Below, piece by piece: positions 23,940 through 47,935 of a stretch of 64,000 nucleotides of DNA (within the stretch, counting starts at the first letter, position 1; each line of letters opens with the position of its first letter). Position numbers and translations under genes: made by a program. This DNA comes from Amphiscolops sp. MND2022. Its lineage: Eukaryota. The notes beneath the pieces were generated by a model. That model worked only from the letters and a program-made list of their open reading frames with translations. It had not been told where the DNA came from and did no database searches. Location: positions 2,046,001 through 2,110,000 of the forward strand of contig OZ076420.1 in assembly GCA_964187785.1 (NCBI GenBank), read 5' to 3'.

Positions 23940-24418
23940 CGAGACTATAGGGTCCCCCCTTTGAGTTTTTTTCGGCACTGTGCGACTTTTTTCGATTTTT
24001 TTTGTCTCCAAAGGGTCCCCCTTCAAGTTTTTTGATATTTTACAGCAAACTGAAGTTTGGAAAAGCCCAAAGGGTCTCCCCTTCCAAGTTTTTCGGCACT
24101 CTGAGGCTGGCTCAAAACTCGTATTTTTTTCGATTTTCGTTTTTTCGAAAATTTCCTAATGTCTCGAAAGGGTCCCCCTCAATTTTTAAAATGTTTTGCA
24201 ACATAATAGATATTTCACAATCCCAAGGGGTCCTCACTTTTAGATTTTTTGGCACTATGAGACTGTTCAAAATTGTTATTTTTTGTCTGAAATTAGGTTT
24301 TCTCAGTATATATCTACTAATATTTTTTCCCAAACTATCCGAAACTTGGACGTACTATCCTTAGTAAAGCGCTATATCCGAATTTTTGACGTTATATCCG
24401 AATTATATTCCGTTATAC
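23940..24418 (+). repeat. 5' part of a HINE-family repeat interrupted by the giant LTR element; continues at 43196-43385
   Basis: GGGTCCCC-type internal repeats; GCTATATCCG motif on both sides of the insertion; CGTTCCCGTCTTGTT end at 43385. Confidence 0.5.
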
Positions 24419-24764
24419 TGATATACCATGATTGATGCTATACTATAAATTATATTTATCCCCCCGCCCCGTGTATGTCTAGACTGTAAAACTACAATTG
24501 TACTCCATTCATATTCTAGATGTAAAATGATTGATGTAACCACTTTATATTCAATACCATAGATCGATGTAACTAATTTATATTCAATACTATAAACCTT
24601 CATTTAGAACACAACTTGAATTGACTCTTCACCGATTAGTTGTCTTCACTTTAAGACCTAATAACTGCAGCTCTATTAGTGTCTCTTAAAGTACTAATCG
24701 TAACATCAATAAAAAGATTCAATTCCTCGTATAACTAAAATACCAACTACAACCAAGTACTTTA
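24419..24764 (+). repeat. 5' LTR (TG...TA); TATAAA 24591, AATAAA 24708, 33-bp internal duplication 24533-24594
   Basis: Matches 42846-43191 except at 2 substitutions. Confidence 0.97.
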
Positions 24765-24766
24765 AC

Positions 24767-24778
24767 TGGTGCGACCAG
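24767..24778 (+). promoter_or_regulatory. Primer-binding site TGGTGCGACCAG (tRNA unassigned)
   Basis: TGG starts 2 nt after the LTR end. Confidence 0.75.
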
Positions 24779-24844
24779 CTCATTTCTTTCCTTCTCCTAA
24801 AACACTTTCTTCTTATTTCTCATTTTCCTTTCAAACAAACTTTC

Positions 24845-25093
24845 TGTACTAATCACACAACGTGATTCGACTCATTGTCGGTACACATCTGAAGTCTTCT
24901 GTACTAATCACCTTCCGTGGTTCGACCTAGTAGTCGGTACATTTCTTTCTGTACTAATCACTTTCACGTGATTCAGCTTTTTGCTGGTACACTATTCTTT
25001 CTGTACTAATCACCTTTTGTGATTCAGCTCCGTGCTGGTACAATCTCCCCTTCTGTACTAATCACCTTTGTGATTCAGCTTTCCGCTGGTACA
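24845..25093 (+). ncRNA. Array of five ~41-nt three-way-junction structural units in the 5' leader
   Basis: Each unit is TGTAC-T-[AATCAC loop GTGATT]-[CGAC/CAGC loop GTCG/GCTG]-GTACA, with conserved or compensated stems and variable loops. Confidence 0.8.
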
Positions 25094-25231
25094 TTTCCTT
25101 TTTCCCCTTAACCCCTTGTATCTTAGTTCGCCTGTAACGGCTCCACCTTTTCAACCCTTCTCCTTTCATTTTATATCATTTCCCTTCTTATTTTAAACAT
25201 CTCTCCATTTTCATCTTTTCCAAAATTTTCT

Positions 25232-25372
25232 ATGCCTTCTCTCAATGACTCTGTTTGTATTTGCCTAATACTCCTTTACTTTCTTGGTCTCTGTGCCATT
25301 GTTCTTCTTCTTCTTCTTGACAAATTTATTCTTCCTTTCATTCCCCATGTTTTTGACCAATATCGAACATAA
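25232..25372 (+). CDS. uORF1, 46-aa single-pass membrane peptide (MPSLNDSVCICLILLYFLGLCAIVLLLLLDKF...)
   Basis: First ATG downstream of the LTR TATA box; ~22-aa hydrophobic run then DK; G residues fall mostly in first codon positions. Confidence 0.45.
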   Translation: MPSLNDSVCICLILLYFLGLCAIVLLLLLDKFILPFIPHVFDQYRT

Positions 25373-25381
25373 TCTTTTTTA

Positions 25382-25495
25382 ATGTTCCTCACTGAAAACC
25401 TCGCCACTATCATCCTTTTCGTTTCCTACATTTTTGCAATGCTTGTTTTTTTAATGCTCCTCATTGAAAAAATTGTTGCATCCCTTTTTCACTAA
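25382..25495 (+). CDS. uORF2, 37-aa membrane peptide (MFLTENLATIILFVSYIFAMLVFLMLLIEKIVASLFH)
   Basis: Same frame as uORF1, 9 nt downstream; similar layout (Y...hydrophobic...EK). Confidence 0.45.
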   Translation: MFLTENLATIILFVSYIFAMLVFLMLLIEKIVASLFH

Positions 25496-25606
25496 TTCCC
25501 CTTTCTTCTGAAATTCCCTATCTCCTTCTCCCTTCTCCCCTTTCTACTTCCCCTTATTTCCTTTCTTCCTTTTATTACTTTCCTTTCTTTTCTCCTCCAC
25601 CTTTAT

Positions 25607-25843
25607 ATGAACCTCCTTTTTCTTCACTATAACCCCTTCTTCGCTCTTTTTCAACTTGTCTTCATTTCCTTTTTTCTTATTATAATACCCATATACATTC
25701 ATTCGTTTCTCTCTTCATTTTATTTTGCCCTCTTTAAAATAATTCATCGTTATTTCTTCCCTCTCCCAATTGAACCGTCAATTCACCCTGATATTATTAT
25801 GGATTGGATTTGGTTACATTATTTCCCTCATAGACACTCCTAA
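25607..25843 (+). CDS. uORF3, 78-aa hydrophobic protein whose stop overlaps the gag start (TAATG)
   Basis: TAA 25841-25843 overlaps ATG 25843-25845. Confidence 0.45.
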   Translation: MNLLFLHYNPFFALFQLVFISFFLIIIPIYIHSFLSSFYFALFKIIHRYFFPLPIEPSIHPDIIMDWIWLHYFPHRHS

Positions 25844-28487
25844 TGACTGATCCAATTCAACCTCTTATCCCTCTCCCCTTTGTTTTCAATACCTCTCAAC
25901 GTATTACCCGTGATGTTTCACAAACCCTCACTCAATTTCTTAACAATCTCATTTACAATTCCACCACTCCTCTTCCTTTTGAAACCTACCCCGAAGATAT
26001 ATATACAACTCCTCTTATTCGTGAACACCATGATTCATATTTATATTATAATGAAACCCATTCTCTTGTTCTAAATTCAGAAGAACCCCCATTTTCTATT
26101 CCCTTCACTTCTCTCATAAATCGCTCCGATACCTTTCGTAAAAACATCTACCCTAATAATATTTACATCCCTATCGCTAAAGTCTTTACCACATTCCTCA
26201 ATCATCTTCAAGAAAACAATAACCTTTTAACCAAACATGTTTTTAATCCTTCTTCCATACAGGACCTTCTTCAAAAGGAATCCCTTTTCAATCTTTCTAA
26301 TATTGAACAATTTAGAACTATTGAAAATAATCCTCACCATTGGCTTACCACTGATATTCTTCAAATTCACCATTTTCAATATCAATTCTTTCAAAATCTT
26401 ACCCTCAATACAAAAACCAAAGAACAAATTCAAATTTACTCTCTCTTCCTCCGAAAATTTTTTAGACACAATTACCAACTCGTTTGGCACTCAAAGTTCC
26501 AAGACGCCTGTATAAATTTTCCTCAACAGTTTTCTTCAGATGAATTTTTACCTTTTATTATTAATTCTGATAGCCAACACCAACAGTATTATAATCTCCT
26601 TGATTTTCCATCCTCTCATTTTCAATATCTTGCCTATGACTCCAATAGTCTTGATAAAAGTCTTAACCTTCCCTCTCCTATTCGTCCTTATACCCAACAA
26701 TCTTACCTACCTCCCTCAACTGATACAACTTCCAACATCTCAATTCAAACTCTTCCTTCATCTTCAAATGCTTTAATAAATCCCATCTCTCTTAATAATC
26801 AACATAATCCTACTTCTATTTCTCAAGTCACCTTAAATAATGAAAACCTCTCTCCTTCCAACTCTCCGAATCAATATAACACACCTTCTAACACTCCACC
26901 TGCTGTTCCCCCCAACTCAGTTTCACTCCCTACCTCCTCCATTCCCACATTACCCCCCATTCCCCTCTCTTTCAATAATACTCTTCATACTCAATCTTTT
27001 CCTCCAAATCCTCCAATCTCTTCTATTTCTCAAACTTCTTCTTCTACTACACAACCCACCCCATATAATCCTTATGTTTCTCTTTATCCAGCTTTTCAAA
27101 ATTTCCCCACTAATTCTCACCAACCTCCTCCTAACCCCCCTCAACCTACTCTTTCCACTTCAACAATACCTTTCAACTCTTCTTCTCTTCAGCCATCTCC
27201 TCCTTTTCCCACCACCCCTTCTGTCCTTTTGCTGCACTCTCTGATCCCATTAAACTATTTGATGGCCTTGACCATACTTATCCTCCTGAAAAATTCTTGG
27301 CACATCTTAGTGCTCGAGTAACATTTCAACTTGGACCTCAACCTGTTGATATTCACTCATATTTAACATGGCATTCTCGTCGAATGTCTCTCTTATATTG
27401 TTCCCTCACAGGAACTGCTTCTAATTGGTTTGATCGCCTCCCCCAAGTTTATAAAGATGATTGGTCATCTTTCCTCCAAATTTTTAAGAAACAATTCTAT
27501 TCCCAAAAACATGCATACCATGCTCAAATTGAAGCTCTTTCCCTTGTTAAAAAAGATAATGAAAATGTCCGTCACTTTGCTCTTAAAGTCGAAACACTTG
27601 TTAAACAAGGATGGTACAATGAATACCCGTCCACTATTAATCTTAAATGTAATGAAATTTTCACTCGTGGTCTTCCAAAAAAATTAAAAGACTTTGCCAA
27701 CAAACGCCAAGTTAAACATATTTCCAGTTCCTTAGAACCATCAATTCCTTTTCACTCTCTTGTCAATATGGTCGATTCCGAAGATATTACTCTTGAAAAA
27801 ATTAAAACTCAAGAACTTTCACTTGAAATAAACAATTTATCTACCACTTTTCAACAAAATACAAATATTCAAGATCCTCCTTCAGAACCTCCACACGTTC
27901 AGGTCATTGATCCGAACAATAAATCCAAACCTCAATTAAAAAAATATTGTTCCTTTTGCCATAAAATTATTAATCACTCTGTTTCAACTTGCTTTCGTCG
28001 CCTTAATTTACTCAAAGAATCGAAACCACAATCTCGATCTCCAACTCCTACCTTTTATCAACATTTTAAAACTCCTTCAAATAAATCTCGTTATCCTCGA
28101 TACCGTAGTCGAAGTCATAGTAATCCATCTCGCAAATCCTCTCGCGACAATCGCTACGACAATCGCTACCATTCTCGTTCTAATTCACGTTCACATTCAC
28201 GCTCTAAATACAACTATAAAACATCCTCTCGTACATATTCCCCTTCTCATAATCGTGATAGATCTAGATATGACAAACATTACCATCAAAATCCTTACAA
28301 ACCATATTCTTCTTCACGAACATATTATAACTCTAATTCTTCTCGTAGCCCATCTAAATATTATCCCCGTTCTCGTGAACGTGGCTCCAACTTTAATACT
28401 TCTACTTTTAACAGATACACCTCTCCTTATCGTCCTCCTTCTAAACCACGCAATGATCGTTATCGTAGCCGATCTCATTCAAATTAA
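25843..28487 (+). CDS. gag: Gag (~880 aa reconstructed; -1 frameshift near 27225): long N-terminal domain, P/S/T/N linker, capsid, Cx2Cx5Hx4C knuckle, RS-rich tail
   Basis: ORFs 25843-27321 and 27297-28487 join as ...PSV(P)FAALSDPIKLFDGLDHTYPPEKFLAHLSARV...; retrotransposon-gag motif LTGTASNWFDRL...W..F...F. Confidence 0.85.
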
Positions 28488-31400
28488 AATCACCCCTCTC
28501 CACCTCAATATAAACCTTCCTTAAATCTTACACATCCGTCTACACCACCCATTCAAAGCAACTCCCCTTCACAAACTCATTTTGAAATAAACATGTACCA
28601 CCCTAATCCTCCATTCCCTCAATCTTCTTCAACTTCTACTGAACATGCTAATGCTCTCACACCTTCCACTTGGTTTGTTAATTTATTTCTTTTTAAACCC
28701 AATGAAGATACCTCTATTCCCTCTAAATTAGAACTATTATTCTTACTTGACAGTGGAGCATCCATCTGTGTTTTAAATTTACCCACCTTCACCATTTTAG
28801 CCGATCATTTTTTAAAATGTTCAAAACACTCCCCACCTCAAAATGAATATAAAACTTTAACTGTTGCCAATAAATCTGAAGTACCTATTCTCCATAATCT
28901 TATACTTACACTTCATACCTCCCTCCAAGGAAATACTCGTACCCTTGTTATCCCCTTTGCAGTTGCAAATATTAAATATAATATTCTTGGAACTCCCTTC
29001 TTTGAAAAATATGTTAAAACCCTCAATATTGAAAGCATGTCATTAACATTCAATACCCCACATGAATCTCGTATCAATACTCTCCCTTTTACGGCTCATA
29101 AAGAAAAAGATTATCCATATTTTTCTTACATATACACCATCAATGTTAAAAATAAAGTTTATTTTAAACCAAATGCTTCTCAAATTATTCATTTTCCAAT
29201 TCAACCAACACTTCCTTTAACATTTAAAACTTCCGATAATGAAGTTAGATTTCCTTCCACACCCCATCCATTTTTTAACACACGCTTCAACTCCACCTTT
29301 AATTTCCTCCAAGTATATCAAAATACTAATACCGAACCTTCCAGTTGTTCTGTGATTATTCAAAATATCACACATCATTCTGCCATTCTTGCCCCTGGAT
29401 CTATTGGATACATTGAAGTTCCAGCCACTAATATTCAACCAACTCATTACAAAGTTAATGATGTTAACTCTTTAATACACACTGTATTTCATTCATATTA
29501 TCCTGATCTTTCTGAACCAAAACCTCCTCGCCGGCGTTCTTCTCTTCGAAACCCTCAAATTGAAATAAACAATTTGCAACCTTCTCAAATTTTAACCCGA
29601 TCTCTTCCACCATTACCATATTCACCAGACACTCAACAATTCCTTCATAAATTTAAATTCCAATACTCTGATGTAACTGATGAAGAATATTTACAACTTT
29701 GCTCCATTCTTGTTAAATATCGATTATGCTACGCTACACATAAAAATGATGTTGGCCGGATAGCTACTCCTTTTAGAATTCGTCTTAAACCTAATGCTAA
29801 ACTTCAAACTCAAAGACCTACCAAAGTTCCTATTCACTATAGAGAAAAATTAAAAACACTCCTTGATGAATTAGAAAAACACAATATTATTCGTCAAATT
29901 GGTTCCACTCATTCTGACAAATCCATCTATGGTACTACATTTTTAAACCCCCTTATTATTATCCCTAAGGGAGATACTATTAAAGTCGTTTTAGACGCAC
30001 GCCATCTTAATTCAAACACCGATCAATCTTTCGAATCTTGGCCTATTGAACCACTAGCCCCCCAACTTGCACGTGCTAACAAAAAATTCAAATCCGCTAT
30101 TGACCTTATGTACGCTTATGCCCACGCTCCTTTAGATGAAGAAACTATAACTTTAACAAGTTTCTCTTCTGGTGACAAACTTTACGCTTTCATCCGTGGA
30201 TTTTATGGCCTTAAAGGCTTACCAAATTTCTTCACCAAACAAATGCATTCATTCTTTCAAAAACTTATTGACCAAGGTTTTGCATTAGTTTATATAGATG
30301 ATATCCTTCTCCTCGCACATACAAAACCACATATGTTAACCTTAATTGAACAACTTCATCAAATTTGTCAAACAAATAATCTTAAAATTGCTCCTGAAAA
30401 ATCTTTCTATATCCTCCTCACCGTCAAATTTCTTGGACATGAAATCGGTAATAATACAATTAAACCTATCTCTTCTAAAGTTGATGCTCTTCACAAATTA
30501 AAAACTCCTACTTCAAAAACTGAATTAAAGCGCTTTATTGGATCAATGAATTTTTATTCTAAGTTCATCAACAAATTACACATCTCTTTAAAACCCTTTT
30601 ACACTCTTCTCCATGATGATATTCCATTCGAATGGACCCCCGATTTAGATAAACTTTTTAACCAAATCAAACTTTCTCTTTCTAAAGAAGCAGAACTTGC
30701 TATCCCAAATACAACTCATCCGTTTTATATAACTGTCGATGCCTCTTTAATAGGCCTAGGTGCAGTTTTATTTCAACCAAACTCCAAAAATAAAATGCAA
30801 ATAATTTCTTATAATTCTCGTATTTTAACAACCCAAGAACAAAAACTTTCTACCTATGATAGAGAACTTTGCGCTATTACCTTTGCTCTTTCTCAATATG
30901 AATTTATTATAATTGGCTCCAAATTTCCAATAACTATTTTTACAGATCACAATCCTATTCTTTTCCTTTTCACCCGTAAAGGTAATCTAACTCCTAGACA
31001 ATATAAAGCTCAAATGCTATTAACCAAATTTTCAAATTTACAAATAATCCACACAGCCGGTACAAATCTTACTGTTGCAGATATGCTTAGTAGAGATTTT
31101 TCAACTATTAATACCCAAACATGCCAACTTCAACACAAAACTCTTCCTCCTCATATTGATTTTCTTCAACTTAAAAATAACAATATTTTACAACCTATTC
31201 ACTACCTCGTAAAACATGAAGATGTTCTTCCTACACAAAAAAATGATTCACACCTAATTTTGGCTGATTACGGTGATGATCAATTCACACTTCGTATACA
31301 AGATAAAGGCAATGTTGTTAAATACACTCCTCTAGATTCCTTTTCATTTCAATCTGTTTCTTCATTCCTGAATAAATACAAAAAACCTGTCAAAAATAAA

Positions 31401-33737
31401 GTCAAAACCTTACTTCAAGAAAACCCCCCTTTAAATGAAACTGATTTATACGAAACAGACGATCCTGTTCTTAAACGTATTCCTCATCAGCATTCCCAAC
31501 CATCTCATGAACTTCACACTCTTTTTACCGAAATACAACACCATTATTTCAATGATATCAATTTGTCTCAAGACATCCTAACCAACTTTACCAATTCCTC
31601 TCCTATTATTAATAGTATTATTGAAAATAATGCTATAATTCAAACTACTCCAAAACCCATACACACTCAATCTTTACCATTTTTTGACCCCTCCTTCTTT
31701 GCTCATCGTAAAGCATTTGATAATTTCTTCCTTCCTTCTGACACGTTTCTCACAGTACCTATTTTACTCCAAGCCCAAAAGGATGATCCTGTCCTTTCTA
31801 CAGTATTTAAATGGTTAAAACAAAAACAAAGACCTCATTCCTTGTCTCTAGTTATTAAAGCTAACTCCTTTTTATATACATATTATAAACAATTTCAACA
31901 TTTATACCTTGATCCAAGTTCTCATCTTATTCAATATTATACTCCTAATTCTCGGGTTTTTGAATAAATCTTTATTAAAACTCAACCCTCTATTAACCAA
32001 ACACGTATATGCTTACCATTCAAACTTTTCTATGCTGCATTTAGTAAAACACATTCTCATGGTCATTCCGGTGAAAAACTCTCAATTAAGACATTTAATC
32101 AATTTTATTTCATCCCTCATTTACCTTTATGGTTCTCAATTTTCATCCATGACTGCATAGAATGTCAAACTAATAAGCATTTTCCTATTAAACCCCAAAA
32201 CATTTCTCCTCCTCTTCCTTTTTATGAGAATGCTACCCACTTTAATTACCGGATTTCTATGGATACTAAAGGCCCTATTTCTCCATCTTCACAAAACAAC
32301 TCCTATATTTTTGTCATCATAGATGCATTCAGTCATTTTGTTGTTACAAATCCAGCTCCTCATATTACTTCAAAATATGCTATTCAAACTCTTCTCCACC
32401 ATTGGATCACAAAATTTGGTCCCCCTCAATATCTTGTTACAGACCGAGGTACTGAATATATAAATCAAGATATGGCTCATCTATGCTCTCTTTTTCATAT
32501 TAATCACTCACCCCGAACTCCTTACTCTCCTTGGACAAATGGTTTAGTTGAAGTTCAAAACCGAAATCTTGGAACTCATCTTCGAATTTTTCTACAAAAT
32601 CCTCCTACCAATTGGTCATTTCAAACACAAATGTATGCATATGCTCATAATACGACACCTCTTTCTCAACTTAAACATTCTCCTTATCAGATTGTTTTCC
32701 ATACTCATCCTCGTATACCTCTCACCTTTTCTCTTAACTTACCTCGTAATGCTTCAAAAAATTGTATCGCAACTTATTGTGAATCTCTTCCCCCCATTCC
32801 CATTACAGCACCCAAGATCTTAATCCCTTCTTTCACTCAATTCTTGAAAAACCTATCTCCTCCTGGCTTTTAGCAGCTGAGACTGCAATGTTAGAAATAT
32901 ATTCCACTGTCCATCGTCATATAAATCATAAACTTAATTCCCTAAACAACTCACCTGAAACAATTACCTCTTAATACATTTGTCATTCATACTAATTTTA
33001 AACCTGTTAATTTTTCAAAAAAGCTCAAACCTCTTCGAATTGGCCCATATAAAATACTTAACCATCTTTCTGAAGTAACATATGAACTCCTTTCTCAAGA
33101 CGGCTCTACCTTTCAAACCCATCGAAATCATATTATACCATATTATCCCAAAGAACCTATAATTTTTCCCTATATTAAACATTACTACTCTACTCCTTCC
33201 CTTATTAATAATCCTGATACTGAATCTTACCAAGATACCTTCTCTCGCTTTTCCTCCTTAGAACCACTCCAAACCTCAAATCAGTCTCAAACTCTTACAT
33301 CTTCGAATCATAAAAAACATAACAATTCCCCCACTTCCATCCCTACATATCAAAACCTTTCCAGGTATTCTTCTTCACAAGATAACTTACATAATATTCC
33401 CCCTTCTACCCCTACTAACCAAAACTCTTTACATTCCTCTCCTTCCTTTCACAATACCCTTGACACTACTTTTGACTCTCAAGACTCTGACTCTGAAATG
33501 CTTCCTAATCCAATTTATTATTCAAATTCCTCAAATGATTCTTTCCCCCAATTCTTTCCTCGTATTGCTGATTCTTCAAATCTTTCATCATCATCTCCTT
33601 CACTTGATCCTCTAGATATACCTAATTCTCCAAATGAAACTACTTACACACGAGCTCCTCACTCTCCTTATAATCTACGTTCACTTCCCCCCCAACAATA
33701 TAATCCCACAAAACCAAACATCAATTTTCCCCCCTGA
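28488..33737 (+). CDS. pol: Pol: protease, RT, RNase H, HHCC zinc finger, integrase, GPY/F tail; nonsense codon at 31965 and frameshifts near 32790 and 32950
   Basis: LDSGA 28746, YIDD 30291, TVDAS RNase H, HSHGH...CIEC in frame after TAA 31965, D-D(35)-E counted from TDRG to NGLVE, IGPYKI. Confidence 0.95.
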
Positions 33738-33986
33738 TTAAATATTCATTTTTAATTGAATTTCCTACCCTTCTATACTGACGTTAGTCTAGACTTCTAA
33801 TACAGTCTGACGAATGACAATTTAATTATGACAATGTAGTTAGTAATTGTCTCTTATACACCTTTCTTCACTTTATCTTGCTGAATTTAGCTGAACGGTT
33901 GCTCTAATAAAAACTTGATTTCATAAAAAATAAGTCTTAAATTTTCTCAGACCTTTCTTCAATATTTCCTCTCCTCTCAATAATAA

Positions 33987-35412
33987 TCTTTCTCCATCCC
34001 TTCATATTTAACCCTCTCTGTTTTAACACCACACAATTTTCTATTTTCTAAAACCACCCCAATAAACTTTCATTTTGTTTCCATCCTGGATCTTACTGTA
34101 TTTTTGTCTGATTCCTCCTCTCAACCTTCTTCTTCTGTTTCAAGTGATACTATACCTTCATCACAAAGTTTTTTACCAACTTCTCAACAACCTCCCCTAA
34201 ACCCTACACCAATCACCCCCTCTTTAGATACCACCCCTGTTAACACCCCAAGTCACACTCCTATTAAAACTTCTGTTCCTCAACATACTCAAACTTCTTT
34301 AACTCTCCCACTTTCTGATACTGAATTCCCTTTTGATATAACCCCTGCCCATTCTCCCCCTCCTTCCTTTCATATCCCTGACCCTAGCGATATTAATTCT
34401 ACTCTCCTACGCAATATTAATAATCCAAACATTCCTAAATCAAATCTCATACCTACCTCCATAAAATCTTTCCGTAGACGTTCCCAATTAGATCATTCCT
34501 TTTCTATTCCTCCACCTTGTTCTCATACTTCTTCTAAATCTTCACTCCCCTTAGCTAAACCACTAAAAATTCCTGCTCTCGAATCCCTTGATTCTCTTCA
34601 AAAGAAATCTGATTTAAGTGAAGTTGATTCAACTACTTGCTCTCTCCTCTATCCTCGTCTTCCTCCTTCAAATTCCGCCTCTAAATACACCACTTCTTCT
34701 TTAGATAACCTCCTCGACAAAACCTCCGAATCTACTCTTCACCCACCACTTCGTCACAGATATAACCTTCGTAATAATCGTCGTCTTTCCCCTTCTCTTG
34801 AACTCTTCTCTTTTACGTCACCACGCTCAATCTCTTTCTTCCGAATCTCTAACAGCAAATTCTCCAACTTCCGGAATTGACACTGCCTTTTCTCAACGTT
34901 CTTCTATTTCCTCTTATACTCACACTGGTCACCTTTTCTCTCGTCCCACTTCTCAAAACTCCAGTACTCTTTCATCTGACAGCCATATACTTAATATTGA
35001 CCTTACTACTGACCAATACTCTACTCCTCCTACACCTAATCGTGTCGATTACCCTTTAATCGTAAATAGCACCCTTGTTAACAACCCCCGCCAAGACCCT
35101 CGTTTTCTCTACCTTGCAACCCATAAACTTAATTCAAATCCTCACATCTCTGATGCACGCCGTCGTAAAGAATTTCTTCGTCTTGAAGATACAAATTTAG
35201 AACTCAAATTTGAAATTACAGTAAAATTCCATAAATTAAGCCCCCACCCTATTCCTTCACATACAACAGTTCATTTTAAATCCCTTCCTCATCCATTTAT
35301 TACCACAAATCTTAACCTTTTTGTCAGCGACCATCCCCCCTTCCGTCTTCTACACGGTTCAATCACTTTTCTTAATACCCTAACGTTTTTAAAATATACT
35401 GCACAATTTTAA
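33987..35412 (+). CDS. ORF-X, AUG-less Ser/Pro-rich protein with a structured-looking C-terminal ~100 aa (frameshift near 34800)
   Basis: Overlapping open frames 34104-34880 and 34798-35412, neither with an in-frame ATG; stop lies 1 nt before the env ATG. Confidence 0.6.
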
Positions 35413-35413
35413 C

Positions 35414-37792
35414 ATGCTCTCTTCCTTTCTTCACTCGTTCTTTTACTTCCTTTCTTCCTTATTCTTAGCTTTTTTCCAAATTACTCCCTCTCCTGATCAT
35501 GTGGATCCCAACGATCCTCATATATCGGATCTTTTAGTATCTCATTATGACTGTTCTAAACAACACAATTTAAGACAATTTAGTCTTACCAGAGTCCAAC
35601 CTTGTGCTCAGGCTCCGTCTGCTTTTGAAAGTACTCGTGCTATTGTTGATGTTTTTGTTCGTGCTAAAGCTAAACGTCTTAAAGCCTGGACTTGTGAAGC
35701 TTATGTTAAACGTGAAAAATTTGTCTGTGCCCAATCCGATTACAAATACCGTCGCCATGATCGTACGGATTATCACCAAAATACTATGGAACGCCCCCGT
35801 ACTCTCGATCCTACTGAATGCAAACATGCTATTCGCCATTTAAATGGTACTAATAATCCTCAACTTGATGCTTTTAATTACTCCAACTCTTTTACATTTT
35901 TCAATGATATTCAAAAACAACGCCTTTTAGAAACAAAACAACCTCCCTTTCGTATTACTAAACTCAATACCTTTCACTATGGTGCTTTTGCTTGGATCAG
36001 CAATTCCCAATTAGTTTTAAATTCTACTTTAAAAGAAAAAGCTGTTTGTTGGGATCGCTATGAATATATTATCGAAAAAGATAGTTGGTCTCTCATCGTT
36101 AAAGAAATTGAAATTACTTATGATGATAAAGATAACAAACTTATTTACCATGGACATACCTTACCCTGCCTCCATGATGATGGTTTTTGCAAACCAACTA
36201 TATTAACACCTTTTACCATTGTTTGGTTTCCTGAAGACCTTTGTTTAATATTTTCCATACATTCTTTTATTGGTAGAATGTCTAAACTTAATAATCGCTA
36301 TTGGCTTGAAACTGAACACTTTTTTAATAACCACTCCTCCACTATTTCAACCGATACTCCTTATCATGATACCAAATCTCAAACCCGTCTCTCTCGTTTT
36401 GAAATTTTCCCTGAAAATAAAATGTTTTGTAATAAACCGACTCCTCTACATCTTACTCAATATCCTGATCTTTTTATAACATATAAAGAAGGATTTAATA
36501 TGCAAACTGGTAAACCCAATCCTCTTCAACTACCGCAAAATGAACAATATAATCAACTTACTACCCAGTTAATATCTGGAAAATTAATTCATACCCAAAA
36601 TAAATTTCTTTTCCCTGCTTTAAATTCTTCCAATAATTTTGCCACTATTGACTATGAAGCCCATATTAATACAAAAATTGACTATTCTATAAATCATGTA
36701 TTTAAAAGCATGTCTGTTGCCGAACTTAACACCCTCCATACTATATGTGAAGTCGAAAGAACTCAACTTTTAACCATTCTCGCCATGTCCGTAAAAAATC
36801 CACAACTTGCTGGTTTTCTCTTAACTCAAAACCGTAGTAACTTTTTATATGTCGAAGGCTCTACTGCCTGGCTATACGACTGTCCTCATCATCTTTCACC
36901 TCTTTATATTGCAGACCAATGCTATGACAAAATTCCTGTTAATTATCTTGACACCGTCATGTATGTCGACCCTATTACACGTCAAACTTTTGAGTATGCT
37001 AATCAAATTCCTTGTGAAAATAATCCTCAAAATGTAATATCTCTTGACCCTGATACCGATCAATATTATGTTTTAACTCCACAACCTATTAAAAAAGATC
37101 CTCCTCTTCTTTTTGAACCGACTCAAATTCAAACTGCTATTAGTCCTAACACCTTTACCGCTCAAGATGCTGGAATCTATTCTCAAAAAGAATTGAAACA
37201 TTTTTGGAATCGTGTTTTATTTACTAAACACTCCGACAACACTCTTCAACTCCTTGGAAAAGCTATTAGCTATGAATTCATGAATCAACAATCTGATAAT
37301 TCATTTCCTGATAATCCTTACCGTTCACTCCGAATTGGTCTTCATGACTATATGTTTAACTTAACTCCATTTTTTTCACCTGATTGGTTCACCGATGCTT
37401 TCATAAAACTTTTTGGCTACCCATGCTATATTTTAACCCAATGTGGAATTTATTTCTCTACCGCTCTCTTCCTACAATTTGCTTTCAATACACTCTTTAG
37501 TATTTATCGTTCATTTACTGTTCGAAATTTGCTTAAAAAACAAATCTCTGTAATTACTGCTTTAGGCTTTGGTTTCTTTGGAACCATTACCCAAACAATG
37601 ATGACTGCTATGATTAAATCATCCAATTCACCATCAGATCCTAACGATTCAGATTCCCCCCACTCCCCATTGGCAAAAACCCATACCCTATCTTCTAGTC
37701 CCAAACCTCGTCCACCCAAATACCATACGAATATTAAAACGAAACTCCTTAATTTAAAAAAACAAAACTCCAATGCAAAGATTTTCACCTAA
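35414..37792 (+). CDS. env: Env-like type I membrane glycoprotein, class III fusogen-like (herpes gB / chuvirus G family); tail probably continues in 37773-38168
   Basis: N-terminal signal peptide; YDC...FSL..VQPC...C...C; ICEVER...EGSTAWLYDC...CYDKIPV...DPITR...IPC; C-terminal TM (IYFSTALFLQFAFNTLFSIY). Confidence 0.85.
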   Translation: MLSSFLHSFFYFLSSLFLAFFQITPSPDHVDPNDPHISDLLVSHYDCSKQHNLRQFSLTRVQPCAQAPSAFESTRAIVDVFVRAKAKRLKAWTCEAYVKREKFVCAQSDYKYRRHDRTDYHQNTMERPRTLDPTECKHAIRHLNGTNNPQLDAFNYSNSFTFFNDIQKQRLLETKQPPFRITKLNTFHYGAFAWISNSQLVLNSTLKEKAVCWDRYEYIIEKDSWSLIVKEIEITYDDKDNKLIYHGHTLPCLHDDGFCKPTILTPFTIVWFPEDLCLIFSIHSFIGRMSKLNNRYWLETEHFFNNHSSTISTDTPYHDTKSQTRLSRFEIFPENKMFCNKPTPLHLTQYPDLFITYKEGFNMQTGKPNPLQLPQNEQYNQLTTQLISGKLIHTQNKFLFPALNSSNNFATIDYEAHINTKIDYSINHVFKSMSVAELNTLHTICEVERTQLLTILAMSVKNPQLAGFLLTQNRSNFLYVEGSTAWLYDCPHHLSPLYIADQCYDKIPVNYLDTVMYVDPITRQTFEYANQIPCENNPQNVISLDPDTDQYYVLTPQPIKKDPPLLFEPTQIQTAISPNTFTAQDAGIYSQKELKHFWNRVLFTKHSDNTLQLLGKAISYEFMNQQSDNSFPDNPYRSLRIGLHDYMFNLTPFFSPDWFTDAFIKLFGYPCYILTQCGIYFSTALFLQFAFNTLFSIYRSFTVRNLLKKQISVITALGFGFFGTITQTMMTAMIKSSNSPSDPNDSDSPHSPLAKTHTLSSSPKPRPPKYHTNIKTKLLNLKKQNSNAKIFT

Positions 37793-38481
37793 TTCTTCTC
37801 CAAGTAAACCTATTTCTTCTCCTATTCCACATTCTACTCCCACTAATACTGAAGATCATTTACTCCCACCCCCACATTATAATTCTCACCTTTCATCTCA
37901 TAATAATCTGTCTCCTCGACCTCCTCAAATACCTTCATTAACTTCCTCTTTATATTTGTATAATTCTCCTCCTCCTGATGACACCAATTGTGATAATTCT
38001 TCAAATGATTCCCCCATACATAACCTATGGCAATCTACAAAACTTTATCCCCCTACTCCGCCACCAATTAAAACTAATGACATCCCCTTAACTTCTGTTA
38101 ATAATATTTTTGACCCCTCTGACAGTCCTGTCAAAGTTTATTCTTCTTGCCGTTTTCCTCCTGAATAAATTTTCATTTCTTAATTTCTTCATTCCATATC
38201 CTGCATATTAATACTTTAATTTACTTACCTCCAAATCAATTTTACATATTAATATTTTACCTCCTTTACATACTAATTATATATATCGTTACCTTTTTCC
38301 CATTTCATTTGTAGTCGTTTTTGCTTTTTATTTGGTCACTTCTTTCTCTTCTCCAAAATCACTCAGCTTTCACATTTCATAACATCCTCTTTTGCATCTA
38401 CATACCTTTTTCAAACTACTGATACAACGTACGTTTGTTTCGCACTCAACTTTTGTCTTAAACTCCTTTCGTGATTTCAAA

Positions 38482-39968
38482 ATGACAAATATGAATCCTG
38501 AAGAAGAACTCTTGTCCAGTATAGCTTCATTGTCACCCCCCTTTCTCTTAAATCTGGTACCCTCGATATTCCTCTTGTCACTGACTCCTCGCTTCCTCTT
38601 GATTCTAACCCCACACCAGAACCCACTTTAAATGGTACTTCTACAACTTCGCAATCCCTTAATAAACCATCTTCTGTAAATCTTAAAACTCGTCATTCTC
38701 CTACCCCGCCTCCTAATAACCTTCATTTTACTGTTGACAATCATCAAATTCCGCACAAAAAGAAATATAATATTCTTGAAGATCCCGTCTTCATTGCTTC
38801 TGGTATCCTCCCTCCAACCCTTCACCCATTGAAAACTCCTTCCCAATCTAATACAATGACCGACGAATTTCTTGGCACACATCCCAATTTTAAAGCCAAT
38901 CTTCCTTCACTATATATGACTCCTACATCTTATAAATTTCGTTTCCCTCAAGATCGTAATTTTGATCATTATGTCGCCTATGCTTCAAAAAACCTACCAC
39001 AACTTGCTTTCTGGCAAAATAATCGTATTCGTTTCTTCCAATTTCAATTCAATCTTCTTGAACCAACACAACATGATTTAAATACCAATCCAAATGATAT
39101 TACCACCACTCGTTCTGTTAAAAAACTTCACCATCAAACCTACCAACTTTTTTTAGAACAAAAACATCCCCAAAATTTTATTTTTCAAAATCACAAATTC
39201 ACTTCCCCGTTTTCCTACCACTCTCACTATTCTTTAAATCATCTCTTCACTATTGGAACAATTCGAAATTATGATCCAGTTAAACAATATTTTATTCTTT
39301 CTTCTTACCATGATCCTACTCGCCCGTTGTTTGTTCCTCAAGAAGCTCTTAATGTAAATGATGACTTTCTCCTCCCAACTCATATTCCTAACGCTGTTCC
39401 TAACTTCTTCCCCAAAATGAATAAATTAGTTGAAACACCTCTTGACGATCACTCCCGCTCTTTATATACAGCTCTTATTCACAAACACTATTCTCTCGCA
39501 CAACTCAATTTTATTATTGCAAAACTCTCCTCCTTTATTTTGAAAAAACAATATAAATATTTCTCTTTAAATGTCTCTGATGAAATTCTTCAAACTCTTC
39601 CTAAACATACTCCTCCTAATACAGTAACTGAATCTTCTCAGGCTCCTCCTCCAACAATCCCTCCTCAATCAAATTCGTATGTGCTTCAGACTACAAACCC
39701 TAATGTTTGTATCAACTCCTTCTCTTGTCCTACAGATAAATTTGTCTCCGAAATTCTCACTCTTCTTCGCCCTCATGTTGAAATTGCTCCTAATACTGAT
39801 CCATTTGTTATTTTAAATCACATTTTTGACACGTTCCGTACTCTCCAATCTTTACTTCAACTTCATTCTTCAGATATCCAAAATTTGACCCTTTCTACAA
39901 TTCATGTTAATGATTTTCACAAAAAACTTGTTTTACTTGAAACTCCTCCTCAATTGACTTCATCTTAG
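38482..39968 (+). CDS. ORF-Y, ~495-aa unknown accessory protein (frameshift at the C6 run 38536-38541)
   Basis: ATG 38482; after the C-run the frame of ORF 38829-39968 is open from 38541 with no stop. Confidence 0.7.
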
Positions 39969-40618
39969 CATTCTTCTTTTCCAGAATTTCTTTTCTGTGC
40001 ACTTTCTCTTACAGTAATTCTCTCATTTGGTAAGAAATCAAACCTTTTCTATTAAACATCCTTCCTATATTTCCCAACATTTTTCTCCTATTTTGTTTAA
40101 TGATTCGTTTTCTTCTCCAAGCCTCTTATCTTATACTTTCAAAACTTTCCTCAACTCTTTTCCAATCTTTAACAATAACTCTTTTCACTTCCTCAATCTT
40201 ATCTTCTTTGACTTTAATACCTAATTATATATACATATAATTTCATTTCCTTCCTCCTCATTTACATATATCACTCCATTTTCCTTTCACTCTGACACTT
40301 CTTCCTATTAACTTCTTTACATTTAAATACTCTCACTTGACATTTTTAATCGTTCTTCTTTTAAAAATTTTGACAACAGGCTCTTCATCTTTTAATTCTA
40401 TTAATTTTAAAGTAATTTCCTTTTCTCATTTTTTTTCTTCTCATTTACTCTTTCGAAATCTCTCAACTTCACTACTACTACAAAATTTTCCTTACTAATT
40501 TTCAACTCATCTTCTTAAATCAATAAATTTCATCACAACATTTTCTTTCTCTATATTAAACTACTCTCTAGTATTTACAATAAGTACAAAATAATTCTAC
40601 AATAATTTTGTTTTAGTC

Positions 40619-41440
40619 ATGTCAGATTATCCTTCTTCTTCTCTGGCATACCCTCTCCTTAACCAACTCCTTGACTCTCTTCCGCCATTTCCTGTCTCTT
40701 CTACTTCTTCGACATTCACACTCTCGACCATGGATACTTCTTTGTCTGTAGCATCATCATCAGATACTTCTTTGTCTGTGGCATCATCATCATCATCATC
40801 ATCTGTTTCTTCAACTCCTACTATTCAACCGCCACTCAGCTCTCTTGTGACCACAACTACTCTTCAACCGCCACTCAGCTCTCTTGCGACAACAACTCCT
40901 TCTCTCCAAATTCCCGTGATTTCTTCTCTTCCACATCCAACTTTGTTGCCAATCTCCACTATTCCCCTGCACCCTCACGATGCAGTCGCAACTTCTCCCA
41001 ATCTTCAACAATTTTCAGCTGTCCGACAATTGACGCACGATCTTCAAATCAAAAAACCACGGCACCCCAAACGTCCACAGCTCTCAAATGGAAACGGTCC
41101 ACCTGTCCGTCGACTGGTCCACACAGTGGTCTACAAACAGAAACTTTCACAATATATCGACGCACTAAAAATGTACGAAAAACATTTAGATGAACTCATT
41201 TATCAAACTACGCTCCAATTAGATATTATTAATAATAAACTCCCCCATTCAAAATTACGTAAATTTAAATCGCCTCCCTTCACACATAGACCTTTATCCC
41301 CATTGACTATTCAAATCCCCTCTCATAATTGCTGTCACTATAACAATTACATTCAATGCACTACCCCCCATTGTTCCCATGTTCCAGTAAAATATACATG
41401 TCCTTCTCCTTTACCCCCCTCTCTCTTTCCCCCGCATTAA
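40619..41440 (+). CDS. ORF-Z, 273-aa accessory protein (S/T/P-rich, basic KKPRHPKRP, coiled coil, Cys/His cluster); may extend to 41538 by frameshift
   Basis: ATG-initiated 273-codon ORF; internal in-frame 30-bp and 39-bp duplications. Confidence 0.7.
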   Translation: MSDYPSSSLAYPLLNQLLDSLPPFPVSSTSSTFTLSTMDTSLSVASSSDTSLSVASSSSSSSVSSTPTIQPPLSSLVTTTTLQPPLSSLATTTPSLQIPVISSLPHPTLLPISTIPLHPHDAVATSPNLQQFSAVRQLTHDLQIKKPRHPKRPQLSNGNGPPVRRLVHTVVYKQKLSQYIDALKMYEKHLDELIYQTTLQLDIINNKLPHSKLRKFKSPPFTHRPLSPLTIQIPSHNCCHYNNYIQCTTPHCSHVPVKYTCPSPLPPSLFPPH

Positions 41441-42845
41441 TTCCCATTCGTATTGAACCCGTAACACCACCCTCTCAATCCCCCACTCCTTTAAATGATT
41501 TAGATAATTTAGTAACTTCCTTAAACGATGTCGATTGAACTTTGCCCTATGTTTCTTTTAAATTCATTTGTACATTTTGTTCAAAATCATCTATGCTTCT
41601 TGGTGTTTTCATACATTTCACCCCGCCCCCTACCTACATTGATTGTCACCCCCCCACCCTTTTATTTTCAACATTTCACCTTCTTTTTTAATGATGATTT
41701 AAAATTTTTTCTTTAGTGTTAAACAAAATTTTTCATAAATTTCTCTTATAACTTCGGTTCTACTGGACATAATTTTCTAAATTACATATTCCCATGCCCC
41801 TTCCGACCCAATCTCTTCCAAATTGTGGAGCTATCTTTTTCTATTCAATTTTATTCCACTTCAATAAACATTTTTTTCAACTAAATTCCAATTTTTAACC
41901 TTTCTCCCAAAAACATTTTTAACTTTACTCCTCTATAACTTCGGTTCTAAAAAATCTCCTCTTTTTTCCTTACTCTTCCCAATTCACATATTCAAACACA
42001 CTCACCTCACTGACAAACTCTTCATCCTTTGCCAATTCTGCAACTGAATTGGTTCGCTCAAAAATTTTGAAAAATGTGTGAAATGACCTGCCACATGATC
42101 TAAATTTGAACAAATGTTGACTCACATAGATTTGTTTTCGCCGCCAACTTTGATCTAATCACGCCGCCTTGTTTTGAAGTTCTACAATTTCATTTTCGTT
42201 GCTCACAAGCCAAGACTCAAAAAAGATCAACGCTTAGTTAACAAACAACTAAGAATCTTTTGTCTTCCATGTTGAACTTCTCTGTCAATCAGGCTGCCAA
42301 AATCTTGCCAAAATTTTTCTGTCACACTCCCGCCTGCCACTCAAATCTTTTGCCGCCTCGGAAGAAAACTAAACATTAAGAAAATTTAGAATGAATTCAA
42401 TACCAAAATAAATCTTATGTGAAATTTCATACCCATCACCAACATGAACGTAAAAGCAACTCTAAACAAATGCTTATTTTAAAAACTCCAAATAAATTCT
42501 CTAACTTATTGATCAAAATTACCTAATTTCTGGAAAATTTTCGCTTCCCAATGTTGCACGTAACTCACGTAAGGAAAGATACAACACGAAGACAACTTTC
42601 AAGACAATTTCCAAGACAACTTTCTCTTGAGATATAAAAATTTTTTTTCCATAAAAATTTATATTAGCAAATACCAAATTTCCTTTTTAACCAAATACCA
42701 TATTTCCTCTTTAGATTTTCTCGTATTATACATTAAACCAATCTCCGACAATTTTAACAACACCCCAACTTTTGAATATACACTAATCAATCTTAAATTT
42801 AACACCACAGTTTACTTCCATTTTTAATTTCAAAACCCGGTCGGA

Positions 42846-43191
42846 TGATATACCATGATTGATGCTATACTATAAATTATATTTATCCCCCCGCCCCGTG
42901 TATGTCTAGACTGTAAAACTACAATTGTACTCCATTCATATTCTAGATGTAAAATGATTGATGTAACCACTTTATATTCAATACCATAGATCGATGTAAC
43001 TAATTTATATTCAATACTATAAACCTTCATTTAGAACACAATTTGAATTGAATCTTCACCGATTAGTTGTCTTCACTTTAAGACCTAATAACTGCAGCTC
43101 TATTAGTGTCTCTTAAAGTACTAATCGTAACATCAATAAAAAGATTCAATTCCTCGTATAACTAAAATACCAACTACAACCAAGTACTTTA
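42846..43191 (+). repeat. 3' LTR (TG...TA)
   Basis: 344/346 identical to the 5' LTR; followed by TSD ATAC. Confidence 0.97.
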
Positions 43192-43943: not shown

Positions 43944-45894
43944 TGTTACGACTATTCACCGGGGTAGTTTTCAGAGTAGTCGCAGTGGTTTTAGTTTTTA
44001 CAGATAAAGATTTTACTGCTAACGAAACATTTTCGGATTCAGAATTAGATTCTTCGGGAGCGGTCAAAGTAGTTTGTTTTTTGGCAACAGGTGCTATTAA
44101 TTTGAGCATTTCCTTTTGGTTTTCAGCTAAGATTTTTGTGAGGTCCGATAGAAGCTCTTTCCTAAAAGTAGACTTTATTTCCTCTAAATTCTCAGTTCAG
44201 ACCTTTGGTGATAACTCGTTACGTCTACGGAATTTTCACTCTGGTTATTTCCACTCAAAGGAGTCTCCTGATCTACAGAAACTAATTCTTCTACTGCTTT
44301 CATTTCTGGCTTCTAGTAGTCATTTAGAGAAAGAGAATGAAAATGCTTTGGAAGTTTTGGAATTCTCCAAAGAGAGCGTTTTGTTTTTCAACGTGGTAGT
44401 CACGTAACAGCAAATGATTGAATTGAATATTTACATGTGCTCTAGATATATATACTTTCTCAGCATCATTTGTTCCTCACCTAAAAATTCTTAGAAATCC
44501 TAAAAATCGGTTTTGTTCACTAAAAATGCTTTATCATCCTTATTATTTTAGCCCTTCAATCATTAGTTAGCATTTCAAATTTTCTAGTCACGGCTCATTA
44601 CAGGATGGCTGTTGAAAACAATTTCGTTCAGCAATTCCATTTCCGGTTTATTCAAAGAAATGGCGGGAAAATAAAAGTCTAGTCAAGTTTCTACCGAGAA
44701 CACACAATGATTCTGCGCAAGACTAGCGAAAAACCGTCCTGTCACGGCAAAAGAATGACAAGCAGAAAATAACGCCGATAATATTACGGAAAATTCTAAG
44801 CTATTGTGCCAAAAAATTTTGAGCTGCTTCATGGAAGGAACAAATGATGCTGGAAAATGATGAATACAAGGCAACAATTGGGCTTACATGTCCTATAACG
44901 TCGTTATAACCTACACAAACTATACATGTTCATGATTTGTAAGAAACAGCTTTCTCAAGCAAACAATTGACATTGCAAAAGAGTAGAAATAGAAAAGAGC
45001 ACCTTCTCAGCATCACTACACAGCAAAGATAGTTAATTTCCTTGTCTCGCCATACAGCACGACTTTCCAAATCATTCCTAGCAAAACGGAAGATTTCCGG
45101 AACAATTTAGTTCCCATACTGTTAATAATAGCGGACTAAAGCAATCTTGATTTTACAATTTGCTCCGTAACTGCTCCGTACGTATTAAATTTGGATATAG
45201 CAAACTTAACACCGTTTAGTTTTACAATTTGCAATGTAGCGGTTCCGTACATATTAAGATAGGATATATCAAGCTAGCTAGCTCCGGAGGTAAAGCGGAG
45301 CAACGAAGTCATTCCAAATCATTCTTAGTGACGTCAATTGAATACTTCTTACTAGTTTGAGCGCAAATATGCTAGTCTTAACTGCAATGCTATTGGTCCG
45401 TAAAATTAGAAAATGCAAATCACTGACCCCAGTTCCCAGTCTAAGCCGCGTCCATTACGTTGCTTATATTTATTTAGATTACGTACTTGCAATTTGAATA
45501 GATTTTGACAGCTCCTTCAACCACTATTGTGACATATCTATTGTGTTTTGTATTTATCTTTTTCAGATTTGACAATGTTATCCGTTAGCATCGCGGATTC
45601 AAATATTGATCTCTGTTTGGTTTTTCAGGGTAGAAAAGAATTAACCTTATTTCATTTGTGTTTGCTTTTATTCGTTTAGTTTGACATGGAAAACGGTGCG
45701 AACTGAGACCGGAAGTAAAATATCTTAGGCGTGAATTAAAAGGTCGGAAGTTTCTATATTTTCAGAACTCACATTTTGGGTTCTCACGTAACGGTTACGT
45801 TTATCAAAAAATTATTTCCGCCTTAGCAATTTGTCGTGCTGTAACTTAAGAAAAACAAGGTAAGATATTTACTTATTTACTTTTTGAAAGCTCC
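43944..45894 (-). repeat. 3' LTR of the older Gypsy (first ~74 nt missing)
   Basis: Homology to the 5' LTR ends at GAAAGCTCC (45894 vs 60794), directly abutting the pol tail. Confidence 0.88.
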
Positions 45895-46024
45895 GTGGCG
45901 TTTCCTCCATAGTTACAGCGTCAAGCATTCAAAAATTGGGGTGCGCATGAGGCTTAGGATTAGGACGTAAATTGTATCTTCCTGTTTTTCTTGGATTATA
46001 TCCAACAGTTATGGGCGGTAGAGT

Positions 46025-47593
46025 ATGCGGTATTGGGGGGCTTTCCATATGCGGCGGAGTTATTATGTACTGATTATCAGTAGTGTCCAAGTTAAATACA
46101 TAACATCTCCGGAAGATGTTTTTTTCTCAGCAGAATTTTCATCTGCGGTTGTTAAAACTGCCTCATTTTCCGTTGTAGTTCCGTCATCGATTGGCATTTC
46201 TGTTATTGTAGCTTCTTCATTTCTTTTTCCGGTACGTTTCCGAACAGAACTTCTCCGAATTCTGTTTCCCAAGCTTGCGCGTACCAATTGTCATGGGTTG
46301 TTTTCACTTCAGGATCTGGAAATTGATTTTCCATTTTGACTGTTACGTCAGGTACTCGTCTAATGGATACATATAGCCTCAGGCGAAGTCTATGGAGGAT
46401 TTGCGTGTATCTTGTTCCCGTTCTTCGTACGACGTAGTTGTTGTTAGAAAGGACTTTGACCACTATGTAGGGTCCCGTCCAGATGCAATCTTTAAAGGCG
46501 AAGTTCATTGACTGGTTATCGGCCTTCGGATTCAGGACATAGCAATATCATTTACTTTCAATGGCGTTGCTGTCGCTTTCGTTTATCATAGTATCGCATA
46601 TGTTTCAAATAGGATTGCATGATGTTGTCCTTGGTGAATTTCTGTTATCTGTTTTTGTAATTCATCCCTTAGGTCTTCATTGGCGTCTTTTTTCCATTCT
46701 GGCTTGAGTCCTAGTTTGATGTCCAGAATGTTGTACTGGATTCGTCCGTGAAACACTGTTGTCGATTCACAGCCTAAATTTTCATGGTAGCTCGTGTTGT
46801 AGTTCATGATTGCAATTTGTACATATTTATGCCACATTGAACGGCACTCTCCCGTCGATATCTTTGGTGACGTTTTCAACGATGCATGAGTCCTTTCGGG
46901 TATTCCTATCGTGCAAATCCGTATGTCACGTGTCTGTGATAATTGGTTTACGACGTTCGAAGGAAATTGTGATCCTTTGTCGGTGAGAATCACTGTTGGT
47001 AGGTAGCAATGTCGGGTCATTACGTCAACTATGTATCGGCCGACTGTTCTGGCTGCCATGTCCTGGGTGGGGTATGCGAAGAGATATCGGGAGGAGACTT
47101 CCATCATCGTTATAATGTGCTTGTAACCGTTTGATGATGGTAAATTCGGTAAGATATCACCTTCTAAGCAATCTTCTGGGCCGAAAGTGAACTCTGTGTT
47201 GCCGAGCATTTTTGGTCGTATTTGTCTTGTGTCGATTTGTTTATTAGCTATGGAGTCTGGGCATATGATTATTCAAGCTCTAATCTTGCGAGCTAATCCC
47301 GGGTAATAGTATTTGTTTCGATATTCATGGATCATTTTGGTGATTCCTGGGTGTTTGTTCATTTTGCCATTTAGGGTTGATAGTAGTTCTGGTACTATGT
47401 GCTTTGGTATCAGGATTTGATGGTGTGTTACCGTGCCATCTACTCCGTAGTAGTTCCGCATGAGAACTACGTCTTTGACGATTATTTGTTCTTCATGTCG
47501 CAAAAGATTTCTTCCTCGTGGTTCGGTTCTGAGGAGATTTTTGTCCTATTTTTCGTGTAGTAGGCGTAACTTTAGTACTTTCAGGAGCGGGTC
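46025..47593 (-). pseudogene. Older Gypsy zinc finger, integrase and GPY tail remnant
   Basis: HPGITKMI; LTDKGSQF; WTGPYIVVKV; YNLRPNP tail. Confidence 0.88.
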
Positions 47594-47935
47594 TGTGATA
47601 GACTCAAACCTAAAACTTTCAAATAATAAATCGGAATTGCCTCACCGGGATTTGTGGAAGAAAAGATGCTGTTCTTTTGATTCCAGTAATTTCGATTTAA
47701 TTTGGATTTAATTTCGATTTATTTTGCTCGTTTCCAAAATAAGATTGAACCAAATCATGAATAAATTTGACACTGAAATCTGAATGCAAAAAACAATGAC
47801 TCATGCATCAAAATCAAGAAAGTCAATCAAATCAATTTCCAGAATATTGTCCCCGTCGTTTTGCAGGGCAAAACTGAATCGGAAGTGGTATCGTCTCAGA
47901 ACATTCAGATCTTCGACATGAGTTCCGTTCAATGG

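Follow-up and report, generated by a model that had tools for sequence, protein, structure and literature searches.

Packaging signals of the Ty3/gypsy superfamily are poorly defined even in yeast Ty3; in the available text of a study of its genomic RNA, the packaging sequences are not precisely defined, and dimerization proceeds via one 6-nt palindrome (PMC11381356). Repeats in insect leaders have been read as DNA elements. Among retroviruses, the accessible parts of two reports describe how the single knuckle of MoMuLV binds a UCUG linker, with several UCUG being exposed by a register shift on dimerization (PMC7599994), and how NC of HIV-1 makes its first contact with a weakly paired helix adjoining a tandem three-way junction (PMC7395439). 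Errantiviruses with a gB-type env were sought in a screen whose LTR pairs were limited to a distance of 14 kb, and the terms "packaging" and "untranslated" are absent from the available main text of that work (PMC13524379).

The locus considered here lies in a 64,000-nt stretch of contig OZ076420.1 from Amphiscolops sp. MND2022, referred to as the window. It belongs to a Ty3/gypsy element with env, 18.8 kb long and present in hundreds of genome copies, which carries a row of five putatively T-shaped units between the PBS and gag (Table 1).

A giant env-carrying Ty3/gypsy element

The element has two LTRs, a target duplication, a tRNA PBS, the expected domain order and a gB-type env after pol, the marks of an env-carrying Ty3/gypsy element. 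Over 12 nt, its PBS is the complement of a host tRNA-Met(CAT) gene at its 3' end with CCA added, and the junction of LTR end and PBS has 338 matches genome-wide versus 2 for the control. At two loci (L054 and L055), the LTR end is directly fused to a longer antisense tRNA-Met stretch without a leader behind it; these fusions are apparent products of primer read-through that became fixed in the genome. Because the LTR carries TATA and poly(A) motifs, the array is placed, by sequence, in the putative leader of the element's genomic RNA.

Table 1. Coordinates of the element and of the five units within the window
Feature	Position	Strand	Remarks
Target duplication ATAC	24415-24418		4 nt, before 5' LTR; ATAC again after 3' LTR
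5' LTR	24419..24764	+	346 nt, TG...TA; 2 mismatches vs 3' LTR
LTR motifs	24444, 24591, 24708		TATAAA at 24444 and 24591; AATAAA at 24708
PBS for tRNA-Met(CAT)	24767..24778	+	complementary to tRNA gene in locus L053 plus CCA
Unit 1	24845-24885 (24842..24885 with UUC flank)	+	UCUG at 24843; hairpin B CGAC/GTCG
Unit 2	24900-24941 (24897..24941 with flank)	+	hairpin B CGAC/GTCG; U-G wobble in hairpin A
Unit 3	24950-24991 (24947..24991 with flank)	+	hairpin B CAGC/GCTG
Unit 4	25002-25042 (24999..25042 with flank)	+	unit type duplicated in 6-, 7- and 8-unit copies
Unit 5	25054-25093 (25051..25093 with flank)	+	
Small hydrophobic ORF 1	25232..25372	+	46 aa; first AUG 3' of array; kept in diverged subfamilies
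Small hydrophobic ORF 2	25382..25495	+	37 aa
Small hydrophobic ORF 3	25607..25843	+	78 aa; stop overlaps gag-pol start (TAATG)
gag-pol region	25843..33737	+	capsid, zinc knuckle, RS-rich stretch, protease motif, RT, RNase H, integrase
env, class III (gB-like) fusogen	35414..37792	+	PF24664, E 3e-27
3' LTR	42846..43191	+	followed by ATAC

Pfam domains follow in the order gag, then RT-RNase H-integrase (PF03732, PF00078, PF17917, PF00665), and the closest named proteins are of the gypsy type, at 25 to 31% identity. A frameshift near 27.1-27.3 kb interrupts gag-pol in the window's copy, as do stops at 28487, 31967 and 32873; in other copies gag-pol is a single frame of ~2,640 aa. At 27900-28487, Gag carries a single zinc knuckle and, after it, a long RS-rich stretch, an arrangement conserved in related families, whose Gag proteins have one canonical CX2CX4HX4C knuckle. 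Four or five ORFs of 200 to 490 aa have no Pfam match; those around env (33987-35412, 38502-39968, 40595-41440), of 235 to 488 aa, are candidates for accessory proteins.

Three small hydrophobic ORFs between the array and gag are kept across subfamilies. They recall the sORFs of the MDG1 group as presented in the available part of PMC11952523, although they begin with MP, MF and MN rather than MG and, unlike those sORFs, belong to an env-carrying element.

The sense strand of the element (24419-43191) contains 8.4% G and is C-rich with a GC skew of about -0.5, and the flanking DNA differs. Elsewhere in the window, positions 46586-52986 and 56103-57730 (- strand) hold decayed retroelement pieces resembling the Bel/Pao and gypsy types in their translated motifs, and 43951-45899 is repeated at 58978-60799. 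ARAGORN calls a tRNA-Ser at 35183, and another locus (L042) clusters five tRNA-Val-like repeats within 3 kb. An endoplasmin exon of the host shows 60-63% identity to its counterparts in named animals from many phyla.

Five probable three-way-junction units behind the PBS

The initial annotation described five tandem three-way-junction units just downstream of the PBS, and their coordinates and stems, the wobble in hairpin A of unit 2 and the switch of hairpin B between units 2 and 3 were all recovered exactly. The position is likewise borne out: the array begins 67 nt 3' of the PBS and ends ~140 nt before the first conserved AUG. When each unit is folded alone, the three-way junction (closing helix, one unpaired U, hairpins A and B) is both the MFE and the centroid structure. 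The exact sequence TGTACTAATCAC occurs 5 times in the window, every time within the array. Folding of the 261-nt array region gives a z of -6.3, with none of 200 shuffles equally stable, a value inflated by the repeat structure; the two 120-nt folding windows of the array rank 1 and 2 of 156 over the element (z of -4.8 and -4.0, 20 shuffles each).

Genome-wide, the unit pattern has 1,186 matches versus 0 for a reversed control; a loose pattern with only the closing arms fixed gives 7,714 matches versus 9,836 for its control and is uninformative as a count. We parsed 85 PBS-anchored leaders, made up of the 30 best DNA matches, 10 loci picked from pattern or match listings and 45 loci from PBS lists (5 from one list and 40 of 53 from another), with one decayed copy (L033) excluded. 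A sequence-only pattern allowing four mismatches, which therefore misses heavily decayed units, found 401 units in 80 of the 85 leaders, 186 in a young subfamily and 215 in others, with 1 to 8 per leader and mostly 4 to 6. Unit duplication is frequent, and some units have decayed across whole subfamilies. A deletion shared by L037 and L038 was left out of the evidence because the flanks match, likely reflecting one duplication. No Rfam family reached its threshold in the search, in which two weak snoRNA matches with E above 1 both fell outside the array, and the unit pattern had 0 matches in viral contigs and 0 in metagenome contigs.

Selection on structure and on sequence

The array is very probably a selected RNA structure. 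Pairing is retained at 2,770 of the 2,790 pair cells of the young subfamily, which has 111 distinct loop sequences, and at 2,953 of 3,225 in the other 215 units, which have 109. Compared with the window's units, 187 units of other subfamilies show 0.076 differences per site in stems and 0.445 in loops, about six-fold more, with the four-mismatch limit of the parser capping the stem value; the comparison across copies proposed in the initial annotation thus favors structure. Four pair-breaking stem changes are each common to 2 or 3 young copies, and loop changes are common to up to 15. Private changes number 14 per 5,430 stem sites versus 9 per 1,840 loop sites, reaching stems too, as expected after insertion.

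The hairpin B switch is only part of a wider pattern, in which five covarying pairs, wobble intermediates, the divergent loops and a sister array bear out structural selection well beyond what was first noticed. Corrected mutual information over the 214 distinct units, out of 242, that have a foldable loop places the five variable pairs at ranks 1, 2, 8, 9 and 10 of 465 column pairs, the remaining high-ranking pairs being cross-terms among the same columns owing to shared ancestry. Hairpin B occurs as CGAC/GTCG, CAGC/GCTG, CAAC/GTTG, CGAT/ATCG and CAGT/ACTG. Pair 3 of hairpin A is U-A in 150 units, U-G in 27 and C-G in 21, and the U-G wobble of the unit-2 type is found in 30 of 186 young-subfamily units. 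The ratio of G-U to A-C is 73:30 in the five variable pairs, compared with 37:40 in the ten that are fixed (Fisher p 0.002, on cells that are not independent), and this excess of G-U in the variable pairs points to the sense RNA.

Sequence is conserved as well. Ten of the 15 pairs are fixed in sequence and show no covariation, 206 of 215 units retain the junction U, and the three unpaired bases 5' of the unit are U, U and C in 194, 200 and 182 of 205 units; spacers elsewhere are 37% U and 35% C. The ten fixed pairs and the unpaired UUC flank mean that sequence is selected alongside structure. The earlier view of selection on structure rather than sequence therefore holds in its first half only, and the free variation then ascribed to loops and spacers alike applies to the loops, the spacers being constrained at the UUC flank. 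The module therefore combines a fixed core (UUC flank, closing helix, junction U and junction-side pairs) with a folded scaffold.

Counterparts in sister and more distant families

A sister family, 73% identical in RT and 66% in capsid, has an array at the same position behind the PBS and a similar small-ORF set before gag (L097, L107-L110). Its array (L097-L099, L107-L110) lies about 110 to 420 nt behind the PBS and is composed of bulged stem-loops with a fixed ATTC-type bulge. The sister unit pattern has 5,370 genome-wide matches, with 0 for the control. Among the 100 sister matches listed, counted by eye, 94 have CTGAC/GTCAG, 5 have CCAAC/GTTGG and 1 is mismatched; L107-L109 have a GCAAC/GTTGC closing helix. 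Different closing helices thus stand side by side, each matched inside its own unit. Common to the sister units and the window family are the 5' UU, junctional AC/GU pairs and a stretch of ATTC, and from position and these short shared motifs we infer that the two modules are homologous. Four sister loci were also considered as non-coding derivatives, a proposal rejected since all four carry gag.

In a more distant family (L104 and L105), three tandem AAAGC-loop hairpins with differing 9-10-bp stems lie 118 to 221 nt behind the PBS, and no such array is seen at five other loci from distant families that use the same primer. A further family (L100 and L106) has long LTRs with CRE-like TGACGTCA repeats, an inverted CCAAT pair, a TATA box and 86-nt tandem repeats, and its PBS matches tRNA-Met over at least 17 nt. 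A look-alike junction in its LTR (115 matches) was set aside as plausibly two inverted CCAAT boxes before the TATA box.

Pairing partner of the closing arms

With which arm does the 3' arm of a unit pair? The closing helix shows no covariation in the window element's family, and since all closing arms are identical, the 3' arm may pair with the 5' arm of its own or of the next unit. For the whole array, Turner-2004 parameters prefer the next unit's 5' arm, and the probability of in-unit closure is 0.00 to 0.04 under Turner-2004 and Langdon parameters. Under Turner-1999 and Andronescu parameters, most settings rank the all-in-unit structure ahead of the drawn alternatives, and for some units the in-unit probability reaches 0.8. 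The helix is weak, at about -2.5 to -4.6 kcal/mol per unit.

The first and last closing arms are conserved as well as the inner ones, and GTAC occurs within 25 nt beyond the first and the last arm in just 5 and 6 of 75 leaders; long-range pairing between these two arms could occur. In 11 loci with a decayed last unit, the 3' arm of the preceding unit is intact in 10. These decay patterns, together with the sister closing helices matched within their own units, favor in-unit closure, and the closing helix probably pairs within the unit. The three-way junction first proposed is thus probable, being the fold of the single units and favored by the decay pattern and the sister family, and is qualified by a closing helix without covariation, on which the energy models are split.

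What could read the array

The reading that we prefer, with about even confidence and by analogy with retroviral leaders, is that the array would be a multivalent packaging signal, with the Gag/nucleocapsid of the element itself as its reader. By computation, a structured RNA lies between PBS and gag and related Gag proteins carry a CCHC knuckle, as for a retroviral psi. A family-specific module at the same place is as expected with an element-encoded reader. In 178 of 186 young units and 164 of 215 others, UCUG is formed by the flank together with the helix's first two bases. Each unit would close on itself into a three-way junction; a weak closing helix with interchangeable arms may open or swap partners, which would expose the G of UCUG at the 5' edge of the unit. 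Several Gag molecules could then occupy the row and seed assembly, in the manner of the MoMuLV psi, and the number of units would be tunable through duplication. Several observations weigh against this reading. A sequence scan of the LTR and leader found no GTRAG, a strong splice donor that would restrict the signal to unspliced RNA. No conserved G is seen in the loops, where G accounts for 169 of 2,429 bases; in the sister array UCUG is confined to one unit type, and UCUG could be a by-product of the conserved U-rich flank. The low in-unit probabilities under Turner-2004 and Langdon parameters, the five array-less loci with the same primer and the pair-breaking stem changes common to young copies count on the same side. 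Dimerization, which the initial annotation had named beside packaging, gains no support from folding: the closing arms can swap between molecules, but the predicted gain is matched by 7 of 40 shuffles. Kissing loops of MoMuLV are of the GACG type.

Other accounts have to be set against this one. A chance palindrome in tandem, made symmetric by slippage, conversion and template-switch repair, would suit the ready duplication of units, the private changes in stems and the decay of units in whole subfamilies. It is most improbable, since the loops have turned over and the stems and unpaired flank have stayed, stems rich in G survive in a genome of 8% G, wobble pairs were fixed instead of repaired, and the position of the array is common to a family 27% diverged in RT. 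The consensus of STAR-family RNA-binding proteins (QKI, GLD-1, SF1) is UACUAAY, and TACTAAY is found in 156 of 205 units of other subfamilies with a pyrimidine at the varying position in nearly all units, as if the fold masked sites for such a host protein. The motif is mostly base-paired, however, sister units lack it and transitions alone explain the pyrimidine, so this role is very unlikely. A branch point with 3' splice site (TACTAAY...TTCAG) was rejected as well, with no AG in units 1 and 2 or in sister units and no upstream donor found. As for DNA, the array might be an insulator or enhancer repeat like those in the 5' UTRs of gypsy, ZAM, Tirant and Idefix, its fold a by-product of inverted protein sites; 19 of 49 Drosophila melanogaster LTR-element 5' UTRs are tandemly repeated, some acting on DNA, in the accessible part of PMC8872304, and the L100/L106 look-alike may be mere inverted CCAAT boxes. 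We hold little belief in this account: array units have no CCAAT, half-site spacing varies between 3 and more than 10 nt, nested pairs change jointly, the wobble is strand-biased, and the fixed double-stranded motif without strand-specific pairing of the gypsy/ZAM type is not what is seen here.

Translation control, also raised in the initial annotation, would have the array recruit ribosomes or gate scanning ahead of the three small ORFs and gag-pol, the last in a stop-start overlap. Plant viruses have T-shaped translation enhancers, the first conserved AUG follows 140 nt after the array, and the small ORFs are kept across subfamilies with a similar set in the sister family. This role is nevertheless unlikely, because stacked hairpins close to a capped 5' end hinder scanning, free loops and a variable unit count are unlike an IRES, and family-specific modules better suit an element-encoded reader than the host ribosome. 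We also doubt that the reader is a Rev/Rex/CERV-like export or RNA-fate protein, encoded by an accessory ORF or the RS-rich part of Gag and exporting full-length RNA: the response elements known so far are mostly located in env or the 3' region, and it is psi that usually sits beside the PBS, as the array does. To its credit, a repeated sequence-plus-shape core suits an oligomerizing protein, and ORFs without a Pfam match are at hand. Cer1 encodes a protein of this sort, according to the available text of PMC10309623.

Returning to recognition by Gag, it is a tentative and rather doubtful extension that a whole clade of giant env-carrying retroelements might use family-specific modules (three-way junction, bulged stem-loop, AAAGC-loop hairpin), each read by its own Gag, as a copy-number-tunable packaging code. 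If true, such a code would keep co-resident families apart and be readable from covariation over thousands of copies. The 41-nt module, with its compensatory variants, fixed core and sister counterpart, offers a testable candidate for Gag recognition with a built-in specificity control. Were the function export or translation, both the repeated RNA element and the group of giant elements that carries it would still be undescribed.

Comparison with known systems

A covarying repeated junction in a retrotransposon leader was not found in the largely open-access literature searched, and the array is apparently an undescribed RNA element. In the accessible part of the Ty3 work, the 5' region belongs to the same superfamily and is likewise structured at the 5' end, with no repeated module seen (PMC11381356). 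The 5' UTRs of gypsy, ZAM, Tirant and accord share tandem repeats of variable copy number between PBS and gag; these are described as DNA-binding sites in a source whose available text lacks the term "secondary structure" (PMC8872304), whereas the repeat here covaries as RNA. With the errantiviruses of PMC13524379, as far as their accessible description goes, the element has in common LTRs, PBS, gag-pol-env order, a class III fusogen and many recent copies, and it differs in its length of 18.8 kb, the three small hydrophobic ORFs before gag, the Pfam-less ORFs and strong G depletion.

Closer in build are the retroviral core encapsidation signals, as given in the available portions of two reports. 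That of MoMuLV (SL-B, SL-C and SL-D) shares the leader position, several small helices in a row, a single-knuckle Gag and a UCUG beside a helix with a shiftable pairing register, but consists of three unlike hairpins with kissing loops, whereas here one module is repeated, with free loops and no dimer signal detected (PMC7599994). That of HIV-1 shares leader three-way junctions and a labile helix with a G that could be bound first, but has two nested, non-repeated junctions, two knuckles and exposed GGAG loops, in contrast to the side-by-side copies of one junction seen here (PMC7395439). Overall, the array, known here from its sequence, resembles a retroviral psi in position and build.
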